From assembly GCF_030384885.1 (NCBI RefSeq), contig NZ_CP128613.1: 64,000 nucleotides of DNA, one strand, 5' to 3'. The notes below the pieces were generated by a model that saw only the letters and a list, made by a program, of their open reading frames with translations, was not told the origin of the DNA and searched no databases. A program made the translations under genes and the position numbers. Below are positions 55,625 through 60,618 of the stretch, piece after piece (the stretch's first letter is position 1; every line of letters starts with the position of its first letter). The stretch is from Escherichia coli (lineage in GTDB: Bacteria > Pseudomonadota > Gammaproteobacteria > Enterobacterales > Enterobacteriaceae).

Positions 55625-55640
55625 GGTTGAGTGTTGATGT

Positions 55641-55670
55641 AAAAAAACCGCCGATTTCGGCGGTTTTTTT
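55641..55670 (+). terminator. Rho-independent terminator of the nuo operon
   Basis: A7, ccgccg-attt-cggcgg stem, then T7. Confidence 0.9.
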
Positions 55671-55766
55671 ATGGTGTTAATTGTTGCTAATAAAAAGAAC
55701 ATATAAATCTATATCTGCGTCGAAGTATAATGATTCACTTCCTAATACAATACACAAGGAAAACCA

Positions 55767-56483
55767 ATGGAATGGTTAAGTGAGATTCGCACACTTCGGG
55801 AGAACGTACCTGTCGGTATCCAGGCTGCCAGGCGTTTGTTAGAGAAGACGGGTGGTGATGTTGATGAAGCCATTAAGTTGTTTCATATTGATCAAATCAA
55901 TATATTGACGGCAAAAGCAGACGTCAGTCATCAGGAAGCAGAGACTGTTCTGCTGGAGACAAACTATGATATTGCAGAAGCTCTACGGCGTATTGATGAA
56001 CAGCGCTATACACTGACGGAATTGATTTTGCGTAAAAATAAGGATACCGGAGATGCTTTAAGTAACATAGAATTAGCAATAGCATATGAATGGAATCTGA
56101 CATGCCAATTCTGGTTTGGTTTTAAGGCATTCCAGTCGCTACCTCCACAATTACAAGCCTTTATGCTGGTATGTGAATGGCGTAACTATTGGGGATGGGA
56201 AGGGCTGGATAGTGCGTTATATTATGAGATAGAAAATGTCCCCCAACAATTACAGGTAGTAGGCTTAGATGAAATGGCTGAAGTTATTGTTGTGGCGAGA
56301 AATCGTTATGATGAGTTAAGAGTACAAGGCAAAGACCATAATAACATCATTAAAGATGATAAATTTAAAAAATTTATGAAGCACTGTGAACAACTGGATA
56401 GTGAAGCCGACGCTATATTACTGCAATTTGTAAAGGATAATATTGAGATTTTCCCACGTCGCCACAACGGACACGATTTATAA
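55767..56483 (+). CDS. Hypothetical protein with two N-terminal UBA-like helical repeats and a Trp-rich C-terminal domain (possibly the yfbN-position gene)
   Basis: 238-aa ORF with AAGGA 7 nt upstream of the ATG and TATAAT about 40 nt upstream. Residues about 7-39 and 44-76 follow the three-helix pattern of EF-Ts N-domain / NAC-alpha UBA-like modules. No family assignment could be verified. Confidence 0.7.
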   Translation: MEWLSEIRTLRENVPVGIQAARRLLEKTGGDVDEAIKLFHIDQINILTAKADVSHQEAETVLLETNYDIAEALRRIDEQRYTLTELILRKNKDTGDALSNIELAIAYEWNLTCQFWFGFKAFQSLPPQLQAFMLVCEWRNYWGWEGLDSALYYEIENVPQQLQVVGLDEMAEVIVVARNRYDELRVQGKDHNNIIKDDKFKKFMKHCEQLDSEADAILLQFVKDNIEIFPRRHNGHDL

Positions 56484-57053
56484 AAAATTATCCCAAAATT
56501 GAACAGGCTTTTTATCTGCCTGATAATTTCCAGGTAATGACAGGTTGAATTCCGTTTTTATCCAGGATGACAGATCGTTGCCAGCACAGATGATATCGCT
56601 GTTATATATTGAATACACGGGATTACCACCAGTATACGAAGATGTAGACATATATCGATGCTTATATAAAAGAATCAAAACTGGGCATTGGTTTGAGATT
56701 TTATCAAAATGATCTTTACGTGAATCTAAATTAAGTAGTTTTTCTCCCCATATATCAAGCCAAAAATTGTTTTTCATAACATCGTATAATATACCATCTA
56801 AAGGAATTTTTAATGTCTGTTTCACCTCGCGTTCCATTTTTCCAGAGTGTAGAGTTTGCCGCCAGTGAATAAAACCTTCAGTCGTTGGCAAAGCATTATG
56901 CAAAAATGCTTTACAATCGAGTGGAAAGCGGAAACTAAAAGTTTGCTCAATGGCAGTAATCTCGGTCTCACTCAAACCTGCATAGAATATAATTCCTTGA
57001 GCTTTTAATTTGTTAACCAGAAATGTGTAGTCCAATGCTTTTTTCAATTTCAT
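56478..57053 (-). CDS. Hypothetical protein, SMI1/KNR4 (SUKH)-like by motif resemblance
   Basis: 191-aa ORF convergent with the 238-aa gene; stop codons abut (TTATAA). The N-terminal LSETEITAIEQTFSFRFPLDCKAFL resembles the start of SUKH immunity-family domains. AT-rich codon usage. Confidence 0.65.
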   Translation of the reverse strand: MKLKKALDYTFLVNKLKAQGIIFYAGLSETEITAIEQTFSFRFPLDCKAFLHNALPTTEGFIHWRQTLHSGKMEREVKQTLKIPLDGILYDVMKNNFWLDIWGEKLLNLDSRKDHFDKISNQCPVLILLYKHRYMSTSSYTGGNPVYSIYNSDIICAGNDLSSWIKTEFNLSLPGNYQADKKPVQFWDNFL

Positions 57054-57107
57054 TACAATAACCTTAAAGCCTTATACTACAGGTTGAAACGAAGCTAAAT
57101 CATTCGT

Positions 57108-57143
57108 AAGCTGGATAAAATATTTTTGCATTATATCCAGCTT
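57108..57143 (-). promoter_or_regulatory. 10-bp perfect inverted repeat enclosing a TATAAT, between yfbM stop and the 191-aa gene start
   Basis: aagctggata-N16-tatccagctt; on the minus strand the loop reads ggatataatgc. Confidence 0.4.
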
Positions 57144-57204
57144 TTAATACGAATGCTTCATTTAAACTTCCAGACATCCACTTTCCATTGTGCTACCAGC
57201 TGAA

Positions 57205-57708: not shown

Positions 57709-57807
57709 TTATTTTTCCTCCGTTGAATTTCATGTTTCGCATCTTAAAACAGATGAGGGAAAATAAAATGCGCATGTTGCTTTTTCTGGACCCGCCTCGA
57801 GAAAATT

Positions 57808-58809
57808 TTATTGTTTACTGTTGTATAACAAGGTGATAACGCCATCCACGACCTGAGCCATTTTCTGATAATTCAATCTGTCTGCGGTATCACCGGGCAA
57901 GTGGTATTGTTTATTACGATAAAAAGCGGTGTCGGTAATCATTACGGCGGGAATATCGTGTTGCCAATAATTAAGGTGGTCAGAGAAATCAATGCCGGGA
58001 ATAAACCCTGGGGCATTCATAGAATAAACAGATAAATCCTGAGATGACAACAATGCCGCTTTTAGCTGACGAACGGCGTTGATATCCTGCATTCTGCCGA
58101 CCACGGCAATAAAGTCTCCCCGATCGGGATAAAGCCAGGACATTGCCGGGTAAGGGTAATCCTGACTACCAGGCGCAGAGTCGTAATAGCCAATCATCTC
58201 CAGCGCTATCATTAATCTAACTGGACGCTCAAGCGAAGCTGCATGTACCGCGCTCCCCATTTCATCGCTACGAAAGAAGGGCGGTTCTTCCGACGCATAG
58301 GCGACCAGCTGCACGCCAGTTTTCGGTGCTTGCTGCTGTAACAAACGTGCCAGTTCGAGTAATCCTGCCACGCCGCTGGCGTTATCATCCGCGCCCGGCG
58401 TATAAGTCAATTGATCGTTTTCATAACTGCTGACAGAGTCATAGTGCGCACCAATAATAATCAGCGGTCCATCGGCAGGACCATAATCAGCAACAATGTT
58501 TTTGTAGGGACCTCCCGTAATGGGGACGTCCTGCGCGGTAACTCTGGCACCGCTACTGATAAAGACCTCTTTTATATACTCTGCGGACCTTTTCAGATTA
58601 TCAATATTGTCGGCACTACGGGGATGCACAGTTTGTGTAAGATAACGAACTGTTTTTTCTAATTGCTCAGGACTTGCGTGTCGGGGCGTTGGCGGTAATA
58701 CCTTAACCCAAGGTTGATACAAAATAACAAAAGGAAGTGACAGAATTAACGATATAAAACAGAGGGGTATTGTTATTTTCATATGTAATTTATCAATAAG
58801 AGGTGTCAT
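57808..58809 (-). CDS. yfbL: M28-family peptidase (aminopeptidase-like) YfbL with N-terminal membrane anchor
   Basis: ORF of 333 aa (alternative start at 58782); hydrophobic N-terminus followed by an M28 zinc-peptidase-like domain. Confidence 0.85.
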   Translation of the reverse strand: MTPLIDKLHMKITIPLCFISLILSLPFVILYQPWVKVLPPTPRHASPEQLEKTVRYLTQTVHPRSADNIDNLKRSAEYIKEVFISSGARVTAQDVPITGGPYKNIVADYGPADGPLIIIGAHYDSVSSYENDQLTYTPGADDNASGVAGLLELARLLQQQAPKTGVQLVAYASEEPPFFRSDEMGSAVHAASLERPVRLMIALEMIGYYDSAPGSQDYPYPAMSWLYPDRGDFIAVVGRMQDINAVRQLKAALLSSQDLSVYSMNAPGFIPGIDFSDHLNYWQHDIPAVMITDTAFYRNKQYHLPGDTADRLNYQKMAQVVDGVITLLYNSKQ

Positions 58810-59261
58810 TTCATCATTATTTATAATGAGTTGTAAACGGTTATTTTATTAGTGTTGGTAGTGATCTACAATAAGTATATTTTAAAGTGGGGGCGGAATT
58901 TTTAATAAAGAATTCATATGAGAAATAAAAATATAATTATGTTACTTATTGGCAGCTTGAGTTTGACAGGGGCGGGCAGGAGTATGAGGATAAAAATGTC
59001 AGCGAAAACAACCCACTACATCAACGGTTCAGAAAACATGTGCCGCTATACGCTGGAAATCTCCGCAGGCAAAAGATGAAGATTTACAGGGTTACAGTGC
59101 GGAATTTTTTCGTCTGATTGAACTGGCAGATGGCGTGACTGACATCAGTCAGTGATGACTTTTTAGCAAATAATTCCCGGACAGCCAGCTTATTTTCTGA
59201 CTGTCCGAATTGGTTAACAATTTGTTCCTGATACTCAATTTTTTGTTGATGAGTGTTCTTT

Positions 59262-60431
59262 TTATAGTTGTGTATAATAAGTATTTATTAGTGAATCGCC
59301 ATATTTATCTAAATAACAATTTCTGTTTGTCAGTCGATGTTGAAAATCAATTTCGTACTGCTCTTCTGCTGAATATTTTTTAAATCTGTCAGCATAGTTT
59401 TTTAATAACGTATAGGGAGCGCTGTCAGAATTGCTTTCCCTTTGTTCAATTACTTCTTTGGCTGCCATGCACACAAATGCACCGCAACTTTGGCTTAAAT
59501 ATTGCTGAAGATCGGCATGTAAAAATATTATCTCGGGTTCAGTTAAATGAACTTTTATATTATTATTCGACATTTCTCCCATGAGTTCAGAATTAAAACT
59601 ATTAATGACACGCTTAAGTGAATTTTCTTTATCATGGCCTAGTGCACGTAATGAGTTGAATATGACGCATTTTATTTGTTGTGTGTTATTTTTTTCATTA
59701 ACTATTTTTTGTAGCGAAACTAATATCCAGTGTCCGCCAGTATTTATGGGGAATAACTGGACTTCTTTCGGCCATGATGGATCGCTCTTAATATTATCAT
59801 TGAGAGCGATTTCCAGGTAAGTGCTGTTGGAATCGGGGAGGTAGAGACCAGTAGGATAATTGACTTGAGTATTTTTTGCATTAGCGGCGATCTTCTGAAG
59901 ATAGCAATCTATTTCATCCGTGGTTATTTGACGATTTTTATCCCAGAAGTTTGTACCATCGCTCAGTTCATTATTCTTATCATTTAAAAGTACCTTTGAA
60001 AGCGACTGTTTTTCAGATATAAGAGGAATATCATCACCGATAATTGTCATTAATTTTGACGGGGAGAATAGCTTTTTGAACAGGAGATCATCTGAATTAT
60101 CCGGACCAGCTGGTTTAAGGGGGGAGTTGGTTGCGGTATGTGCCAAATTATATAATTTTAAACAGGCATTTTTGATAAGTCGGATAATCGATAGGGTTTC
60201 ATTTGTTGGGTTTCTAACAATATGATAAAGAATATCTTCGGCTTTTTTTCCAAATTCATCATAACCTAACGCAATATTATGCAGTAACTCAATGCTTTCT
60301 TCATCTCCGGATAATGCTGTTTTTTTTAAAGACTGCAGTAATTCATCGGTCACAGTAAATTTTTCTGCAAATGTCTGACTGAGTTGGGTTTGAGATAATT
60401 GACAATAATTGCTGACAACTGTAACCATCAT
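59262..60431 (-). CDS. elaD: CE-clan (Ulp1-like) cysteine protease / deubiquitinase ElaD
   Basis: 389-aa AT-rich ORF with His in GGHWILV and catalytic Cys in QSCGAFV, the usual CE-clan order. Confidence 0.85.
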
Positions 60432-60579
60432 AGGCTCCTTTTAGTTGCAAAGGTTGTGCTGAATGAAGATAAAAAGAGGCAACTTATTGCTCTGAATATA
60501 GTGCGTAAGGAGATGAATAAATATCAAAAATCGCTCAATATGCCCGTGTGGGTGGATATATGTAGCGCGGGTTACGATA

Positions 60580-60605
60580 ACAGGGCAAGTTTCGCCCTGT
60601 TTTTA
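60580..60605 (+). terminator. Plus-strand intrinsic terminator between elaD start and rbn stop
   Basis: acagggc-aagtttc-gccctgt followed by TTTTT on the plus strand; on the minus strand it is preceded by an A-run, so it may also serve rbn. Confidence 0.6.
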
Positions 60606-60618
60606 ATAATAGGCAGAG

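Follow-up and report, generated by a model that had tools for sequence, protein, structure and literature searches.

Positions 55625-60618 of a 64,000-nt stretch of Escherichia coli DNA (contig NZ_CP128613.1 of assembly GCF_030384885.1; the whole stretch is hereafter called the window) form an AT-rich interval downstream of the nuo operon, between nuoN and rbn, which contains yfbN, a gene for a 191-aa SMI1/KNR4 (SUKH)-like protein, yfbM, yfbL, remnants of yfbK, and elaD. Our analysis indicates that this interval is most probably an old chromosomal variable region, neither a mobile island nor a functional module, and that its genes are independent, dispensable units. The main fresh observation is a hypervariable segment within yfbN that is linked to the rare SUKH-like gene. 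The kind of region and the annotated locus are already known; what is new is modest and comprises the architecture of YfbN, its hypervariable segment, a SUKH pseudogene in K-12 and a tract of Escherichia fergusonii type. The interval can serve as a worked example of an old AT-rich region that decays differently in each Escherichia lineage.

Compared with the remainder of the window, the 4,994-bp interval has a guanine-cytosine (GC) content of 0.393 versus 0.524 (z = -5.4), and every other 4,994-bp window has a GC content of at least 0.465. The profile falls from about 0.55 over the nuo genes to 0.32-0.45 from the nuoN terminator to rbn, and GC at third codon positions (GC3) is 0.30-0.45 in the interval genes versus 0.69-0.71 in nuoM and nuoN. 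The original prediction, made from the sequence without database searches, had described an AT-richer tract of lower gene density after the nuoN terminator, and this description holds: the interval is the lowest 5-kb window in GC and 79% of it is coding, with gaps of 142, 151, 99, 479 and 187 bp. From yfbN to elaD the genes are oriented + - - - -. All five open reading frames (ORFs) are present with the predicted sizes and orientations, both in the ORF list and in the RefSeq annotation of E. coli 2013C-4282 (NZ_CP027579.1), to which the window sequence is 100% identical. The predicted identities of elaD, yfbM and yfbL, the UBA-like fold of the 238-aa protein and a weak SMI1/KNR4 relationship were likewise recovered; the 238-aa protein, which had been left unnamed, is the product of the K-12 gene yfbN, and yfbL encodes 324 aa from its RefSeq start (333 aa in its longest ORF).

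E. coli K-12 carries, in order, nuoN, yfbP, yfbO, yfbN, yfbM, yfbL, yfbK, elaD and rbn, in agreement with the original prediction, which placed yfbK between yfbL and elaD and yfbO/yfbP beside nuoN. Homology of the window to K-12 stops at 55668, within the span of the intrinsic terminator of nuoN that marks the left edge of the AT-rich interval (55638..55673, + strand; a perfect 15-bp inverted repeat with a T-run), and 98 bp stand in place of yfbP and yfbO. The yfbK gene has undergone an internal deletion that spared ~104 bp at its start and ~95 bp at its end, namely a 5' remnant at 58918..59019 (+ strand; from an ORF start at 58918 to the end of the K-12 alignment) and a 3' remnant at 59063..59155 (+ strand; annotated by RefSeq as a pseudo coding sequence 'missing N-terminus'). 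In the alignment to the K-12 locus (L002) the ends of the deletion are placed at window position 59019, equivalent to L002 position 6154 and 104 bp into yfbK, and at 59061, equivalent to 7684. The 'spacer' between yfbN and yfbM in K-12 (L002 4064-4335; window equivalent 56484-57204) is an unannotated SUKH-like pseudogene, in which the 3' ~95 codons are spread over three frames with stops and the 5' half is deleted; this remnant is common to ~960 yfbN-positive genomes. A cryptic-clade lineage of the strain, suspected from the 96% identity of nuoN to K-12, was rejected, as the window is uniformly 96-97% identical to K-12, an ordinary inter-phylogroup divergence.

Across 5,426 complete genomes the genes at this site differ widely in frequency, and the claim of a strain-variable accessory region is supported by these counts as well as by the comparison with K-12. 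The elaD gene is found in 4,189 genomes (77%), in line with a published frequency of 353/530 (66.6%; PMC12575377), and yfbK is intact in 2,514 (46%), with ~1,550 further genomes retaining just a 40-bp remnant of it. The yfbP-yfbO pair occurs in 957 genomes (18%), yfbN in 974 (18%), and full-length SUKH-like DNA in 13 (0.24%). Insertion sequence (IS) elements of several kinds (IS1, IS200/605, IS1203, ISVsa5, ISKpn26) are found at the locus in other strains. Two of these strains are examples of the locus still decaying: ABW_A19 carries ISKpn26 between truncated yfbL and elaD pseudogenes, and DSM 103246 has ISVsa5 between yfbM and yfbL together with an internal stop in yfbK.

The gene orders of related species bear on the age of the region. 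Superficieibacter electus and a related metagenomic scaffold (L008) have nuoN, yfbN, yfbP, yfbL, yfbK, cheV and rbn; E. fergusonii has nuoN, yfbN, SUKH, yfbM, yfbK, cheV and rbn; and Escherichia albertii has nuoN, yfbO, yfbN, a SUKH remnant, yfbM, yfbL, yfbK and rbn. In the outgroups cheV occupies the position that elaD has in E. coli. Because of these gene orders we consider the region to be old, with different losses in each lineage. The Escherichia gene pool at the site comprises yfbP, yfbO, yfbN, SUKH, yfbM, yfbL, yfbK and either cheV or elaD, of which each lineage would have lost a different subset by deletion, frameshift or IS insertion, while homologous recombination would also have swapped alleles. 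In the strain analyzed here yfbP and yfbO are missing, yfbK is internally deleted and the SUKH-yfbM tract is of E. fergusonii type. The closest known counterpart is the H-NS-silenced, AT-rich variable segment from yfbP to elaD in K-12, which shares the locus, the flanks nuoN and rbn, the low GC content and the patchy gene content, and for which H-NS binding and SlyA counter-silencing of yfbN have been reported: K-12 yfbN is H-NS-bound, induced 2.8-fold by SlyA and located within an IslandViewer island (PMC5797941, Table 2). The window differs from that segment in that yfbP, yfbO and yfbK are missing, the SUKH-like gene is intact, and the C-domain encoded by yfbN is 54% identical.

Allele exchange is visible in the identities of the single segments to E. 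fergusonii. The SUKH-like gene is 98.6% identical to its E. fergusonii counterpart versus 89-90.5% to other E. coli, yfbM 97.2% versus 93-94%, and the core of yfbN 99.2% versus 95.6-97.7% to E. coli alleles of the same class (class I, see below). Beyond the interval the relation is reversed, with rbn 76% identical to E. fergusonii versus 94.6-99.6% to other E. coli, and elaA 81% versus 82.6-100%. From these identities we conclude that an E. fergusonii-type tract is present in the strain and stops near the boundary of yfbM with yfbL, and it is because of this SUKH-yfbM tract that its SUKH-like gene is intact. The exact YfbN and SUKH-like proteins are each found on ~620 contigs, and their clusters at 90% identity consist mostly of E. 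fergusonii sequences, with E. albertii sequences as well in the case of YfbN. Alignment of an E. fergusonii locus (L026) to window positions 50000-57800 gives 97-98% identity over nuoL-nuoN and yfbN-yfbM, and alignment to 60614-63860 gives 76-86% over rbn, elaA, elaB and menF. This uneven divergence suggests genetic exchange between the two species on the nuo side of the interval.

The yfbN gene itself (55767..56483, + strand; 238 aa, WP_000455116.1) is a mosaic. Between 56033 and 56420 (codons ~90-218, + strand) its nucleotide identity to K-12 drops to 58-75%, versus 90-97% further 5' in yfbN, and the last ~20 codons are conserved again. Scored by codon range, codons 1-100 show a synonymous divergence (dS) of 0.26 from K-12, 91% protein identity and a ratio of nonsynonymous to synonymous divergence (dN/dS) of 0.16, and codons 101-238 a dS of ~1.9 (proportion of synonymous differences, pS, 0.69), 54% protein identity and a dN/dS of 0.15; the flanking genes have a dS of 0.04-0.17, and the dN/dS of the mosaic is 0.15-0.23. 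The hyperdivergent core defines allele classes, between which synonymous sites are saturated across codons 90-218, at a dS of ~1.9 versus 0.13-0.17 for the flanks. The class of the window (class I) is found in exactly 13 of the 974 yfbN-positive genomes, and their accessions coincide with those of the 13 genomes that carry full-length SUKH-like DNA; the other 961 have 60-80% identity in the core block, and a third class is found at locus L003. The idea of one hypervariable block running on from yfbN into the SUKH-like gene was ruled out, since the 3' end of yfbN and the junction (56423-56570) are 85-96% conserved. Upstream of yfbN a TATAAT box that matches the consensus of a -10 element (55726..55731, + strand) is predicted to belong to its promoter, and AAGGA at 55756-55760 (+ strand) is a putative ribosome-binding site.

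An exhaustive profile search assigned YfbN to a family of 177 representative clusters, mostly of ~240 aa and all annotated as uncharacterised, for which Pfam has no model. Its AlphaFold2 model is confident (predicted local distance difference test score, pLDDT, 88). By fold matching of this model, residues 1-90 would adopt a three-helix UBA fold and residues ~95-230 a DMP19 fold, the latter with a Foldseek match to a DUF4375 protein (E 1e-4). The family profile also resembles residues 5-53 of EF-Ts (hhalign probability 89%, with a hand-entered EF-Ts sequence), and the first YfbN repeat aligns equally well to the EF-Ts N-domain and to UBA domains. The K-12 y-gene yfbN can now be given a domain assignment, a tandem of UBA/TS-N-like domains (codons 1-90) followed by an acidic DMP19/DUF4375-like domain (codons ~95-230). 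The likeness is one of fold, not of family membership: Pfam UBA_4, TAP_C and DMP19 all score below threshold, and DMP19 (PF14300) gave no match in the YfbN of the window and matched 2/64 homologues, at best with an E-value of 0.049. The C-domain has a net charge of -10 in the window and -14 in K-12 (family median -9, isoelectric point 4.8). DMP19 is a DNA-mimic protein of Neisseria and offers a precedent for a decoy role (PMC3384305, PMC5722371). YfbN differs from it in its sequence similarity, which lies below the Pfam thresholds, in its two additional N-terminal UBA-like domains and in the absence of an XRE-type regulator beside yfbN; from known UBA and TS-N three-helix domains it differs in its sub-threshold UBA matches and in the spread of its family among free-living Bacteroidota.

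YfbN homologues are common in soil Bacteroidota (Chitinophaga, Hymenobacter), a distribution that argues against ubiquitin as the ligand of the family. A scan for related loci with YfbN homologues (12-sequence alignment, single pattern) gave seven loci, and the genes beside the distant homologues (Leminorella, Hymenobacter, Chryseobacterium, Chitinophaga, Ignavibacteria) are unrelated and include no deubiquitinase. In Ignavibacteria bacterium UBA2373 a TIR-STING effector of the type found in cyclic oligonucleotide-based antiphage signalling systems (CBASS; positions 4671-5606 of the locus; PADLOC PDLC00729, 4e-120; Pfam prok_STING and TIR) lies directly 5' of the YfbN homologue (5989-6723), and another homologue adjoins a PIN_3 protein. 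The single TIR-STING case and the PIN_3 neighbour are not enough to claim an association with defence.

The SUKH-like gene (56478..57053, - strand; 191 aa, WP_000768413.1) is intact in the window and of the E. fergusonii-type allele. Its product matches Pfam SMI1_KNR4 below threshold (E 0.0065; best 0.0018 among six homologues), and of the six homologues at E<=0.1 five match SMI1_KNR4 and four SUKH_5; close homologues are named 'SMI1/KNR4 family protein' in RefSeq. No NCBIfam match was obtained, a sequence search of the PDB returned noise alone, and the AlphaFold2 model, built from a six-sequence alignment, is unusable at a pLDDT of 37. On these sequence matches the protein is a probable member of the SUKH superfamily. 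Among the genomes inspected the gene is intact just in the window and in strain 2017-02-2CC, with a dN/dS of 0.32, and it is frameshifted in five of the six other carriers inspected. SUKH proteins are immunity proteins of polymorphic toxin systems (PMC3482391), which the window protein resembles in its length of ~190 aa, its N-terminal motif region, the weak matches to two Pfam families of the SUKH clan, the naming of its homologues and its strain-variable presence. It differs from them in its sub-threshold matches, in lacking an adjacent toxin gene and in facing its neighbour convergently instead of following a toxin gene; no toxin gene or domain was detected beside it, its neighbours being yfbN and yfbM in both E. 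coli and E. fergusonii. The palindrome TTATAA (56478..56483) encodes the convergent stops of yfbN and the SUKH-like gene, reading Leu-stop on both strands, and there is no terminator between the two genes; this 6-bp stop overlap is also present in E. coli 2017-02-2CC and in E. fergusonii. This arrangement could lead to interference between the two genes through convergent transcription.

YfbN would act as a stoichiometric binding or decoy protein: a conserved partner would be bound by the UBA/EF-Ts-N-like tandem, itself conserved, and the DMP19-like domain, acidic and hypervariable, would be directed at a fast-evolving target, an incoming toxin for instance. In a screen for genes that block the retron toxin RcaT on overexpression, K-12 yfbN and yfbO belonged to the blockers picked for validation, and according to the text the validated blockers all relieved toxicity (bioRxiv 10.1101/2020.06.22.160242). 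A broader reading, in which YfbN is a modular decoy family of Enterobacterales and Bacteroidota that neutralises toxins or defence effectors such as RcaT, with the SUKH-like gene in the same conflict cassette, we regard as unlikely; under it, the deep yfbN allele classes would be kept because the DMP19-like domain counters fast-evolving incoming toxins. The bounded hypervariable segment together with the reported RcaT blocking makes a toxin-decoy role testable.

Several points weigh against the interpretation of the interval as an old variable region and against this mechanism for YfbN. The direction of change was inferred from a few outgroup loci and not from a full phylogeny; Superficieibacter lacks yfbM, yfbO, SUKH and elaD, which could therefore have been acquired later instead of having been lost there. 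Where the E. fergusonii-type tract begins on the left is blurred, as E. coli and E. fergusonii share 97-98% identity in nuoM and nuoN too. The H-NS data come from K-12 and not from the strain analyzed here (PMC5797941). The proposed YfbN mechanism draws on a likeness in fold, on population genetics and on a single overexpression screen, in which yfbN appears in a figure legend and the strain table alone (bioRxiv 10.1101/2020.06.22.160242), and at a saturated dS, diversifying selection and ancient divergence with recombination cannot be told apart by dN/dS.

If yfbN and the SUKH-like gene were instead a two-gene conflict cassette, as a toxin-neutralising or toxin/immunity-like pair, the DMP19-like domain and the SUKH protein might co-evolve with each other or against one external toxin. 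We consider this doubtful. The pairing has its clearest expression in the 13 genomes that combine the class-I yfbN core with full SUKH DNA, a combination seen in 0/961 other yfbN-positives, and it finds further support in the K-12 SUKH remnant, which is also hyperdivergent (58-81%), in the conservation of the convergent stop overlap in E. coli and E. fergusonii, in purifying selection on both genes where intact (dN/dS 0.15-0.32), in the immunity role of SUKH proteins in polymorphic toxin systems (PMC3482391), and in the report of K-12 YfbN as an RcaT blocker. However, adjacency by itself links the two genes. In 5 or more of the 13 genomes the SUKH-like gene carries a frameshift, with class-I yfbN still intact, and K-12-type yfbN persists in 961 genomes in which SUKH is destroyed, so neither gene needs the other; nor does a SUKH-like neighbour occur beside YfbN homologues at the loci examined outside Escherichia, and the SUKH assignment itself is sub-threshold.

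The left half of the locus, with yfbP, yfbO, yfbN, SUKH and yfbM, could also be read as an orphan polyimmunity locus directed against contact-dependent or type VI secretion toxins of competitors, which seems to us quite improbable. Polyimmunity loci, as defined by Zhang et al. (2012; PMC3482391), consist of tandem, co-oriented genes with short spacers, whereas the interval has mixed orientations (+ - - - -) and spacers of 99-479 bp. Gene content that differs between strains, the SUKH-like gene, the lack of a toxin gene within the locus, a predicted YfbN C-domain with the fold of a protein-binding inhibitor and the choice of both yfbN and yfbO as toxin blockers speak for such a locus. Yet a single gene has a match to an immunity family, and a weak one, DUF1877 and DMP19/DUF4375 are unmentioned in the searchable portion of that paper, and YfbM is nearly universal and strongly constrained (dN/dS 0.03), unlike a variable immunity gene.

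The original prediction had singled out the co-occurrence of a deubiquitinase, a UBA-like protein and an immunity-family protein as a candidate module, and the population data speak against it. In a host-directed version of this idea ElaD would deubiquitinate, the UBA domains of YfbN would bind ubiquitin and the SUKH protein would be accessory; we judge this very improbable. The three genes, with frequencies of 77%, 18% and 0.24%, belong to separate transcription units at a distance of 2.7 kb. Although elaD is present in 910 of ~940-970 yfbN-positive genomes, this co-occurrence comes mostly from one K-12-like clade, as is evident from the 984 of 1,010 yfbP/O matches that are at least 99% identical to K-12. 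Each of the two genes also occurs alone: elaD is present and yfbN absent in ~3,200 E. coli genomes, and yfbN is found in the absence of elaD in E. fergusonii and E. albertii (with or without SUKH), in Superficieibacter, at the L003 locus and in some E. coli. The YfbN homologues of Bacteroidota and Ignavibacteria have no conserved neighbour or deubiquitinase, host ubiquitin is irrelevant to the soil Bacteroidota among them, and the first YfbN repeat fits the EF-Ts N-domain as well as UBA. None of the five proteins matched a PADLOC model, those of ubiquitin-like conjugation systems included, at E<=0.01. Had the module been real, bacteria would have offered a striking ubiquitin-related system; with the evidence contrary to it, follow-up effort is saved.

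A recently acquired mobile genomic island at an integration hotspot between nuoN and rbn, as had also been proposed, is largely refuted and scarcely credible: the low GC and GC3, the IslandViewer flag on K-12 yfbN and the frequent IS elements of other strains favour it, and atypical composition and strain-variable presence, as in genomic islands, both hold for the interval, but no integrase or recombinase gene was found among its ORFs of at least 50 aa (Pfam, NCBIfam, PHROGs), no tRNA in a scan of 54000-62500 and no flanking att-like repeats (the direct repeats found are at most 26 nt, imperfect and non-flanking), the variable genes yfbK and SUKH leave deletion remnants in place, synteny reaches another genus, Superficieibacter, and the sole insertions are IS elements in other strains. 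An Rfam search of the interval yielded no element, and PHROGs and viral-fold searches were negative. The interval is better described as a variable region moulded by deletions, IS insertions and the exchange of alleles than as an integration hotspot.

Among the remaining genes of this old variable region, elaD (59262..60431, - strand; 389 aa) is, by sequence homology, a CE-clan deubiquitinase of the ElaD/SseL family. It matches NCBIfam NF008812 over its full length with 439 bits (cutoff 250) as well as Pfam ElaD_SseL-like_N, Peptidase_C48 (4e-29) and ElaD-SseL-like_C, and it is homologous to the solved structure of SseL (8e-25 in the PDB search). The His and Cys catalytic motifs, GGHWILV and QSCGAF, are intact and conserved in the alignment to K-12 ElaD. 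The two proteins are 88% identical and differ in length (403 aa in K-12), in the C-terminal tail and by a 3-aa insertion. ElaD is known as a K63-preferring CE-clan deubiquitinase with a patchy distribution (PMC1847702, PMC4961225, PMC12575377), and deubiquitinase activity has been demonstrated for the K-12 and enterohaemorrhagic E. coli proteins (PMC1847702, PMC4961225); none of the locus-context terms looked for in the text of PMC12575377 is present there. A terminator-like hairpin with a 13-pair stem (seven GC pairs) lies 3' of elaD (59176..59209, - strand).

The yfbM gene (57205..57708, - strand; 167 aa) encodes a DUF1877 protein (Pfam, 6.9e-34) that is the same protein as PDB entry 1RYL (1e-105), labelled 'hypothetical protein', and it has a dN/dS of 0.03-0.04. 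The spacer between its stop and the start of the SUKH-like gene contains an AT-rich hairpin (57108..57143; 14-nt arms, 8-nt loop, 93% complementary), which is not a typical terminator because no T-run follows it. The yfbL gene (57808..58782, - strand, from the RefSeq start; longest ORF to 58809) encodes an M28 family metallopeptidase (Pfam Peptidase_M28, 5.8e-26). At the right flank, the rbn (RNase BN) products of six loci (L008 and L024-L028) match Pfam PF23023 'Anti-Pycsar_Apyc1' besides Lactamase_B_2, a tag that probably denotes common fold ancestry and not an anti-defence role.

Elsewhere in the window, the sole other low-GC kilobase is 38001-39000 (GC 0.38), and the junction at ~38818-38830 lies near the K-12 IS1 site between lrhA and alaA; that IS1 is absent from the window. 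Within the nuo operon the nuoL-nuoM spacer (52404-52627) is 224 bp long and unalignable with the 158-bp spacer of K-12, both flanking genes being 97% identical; the longer spacer is also found in strain 2017-02-2CC and represents a small variable insert. Finally, a 2,776-bp public contig (JAEWTL010000023.1, 'MAG: Bacillota bacterium OH_SDB_141') carries YfbP and YfbO 100% identical to K-12 together with a K-12-type yfbN, and is almost certainly E. coli contamination of a metagenome-assembled genome.

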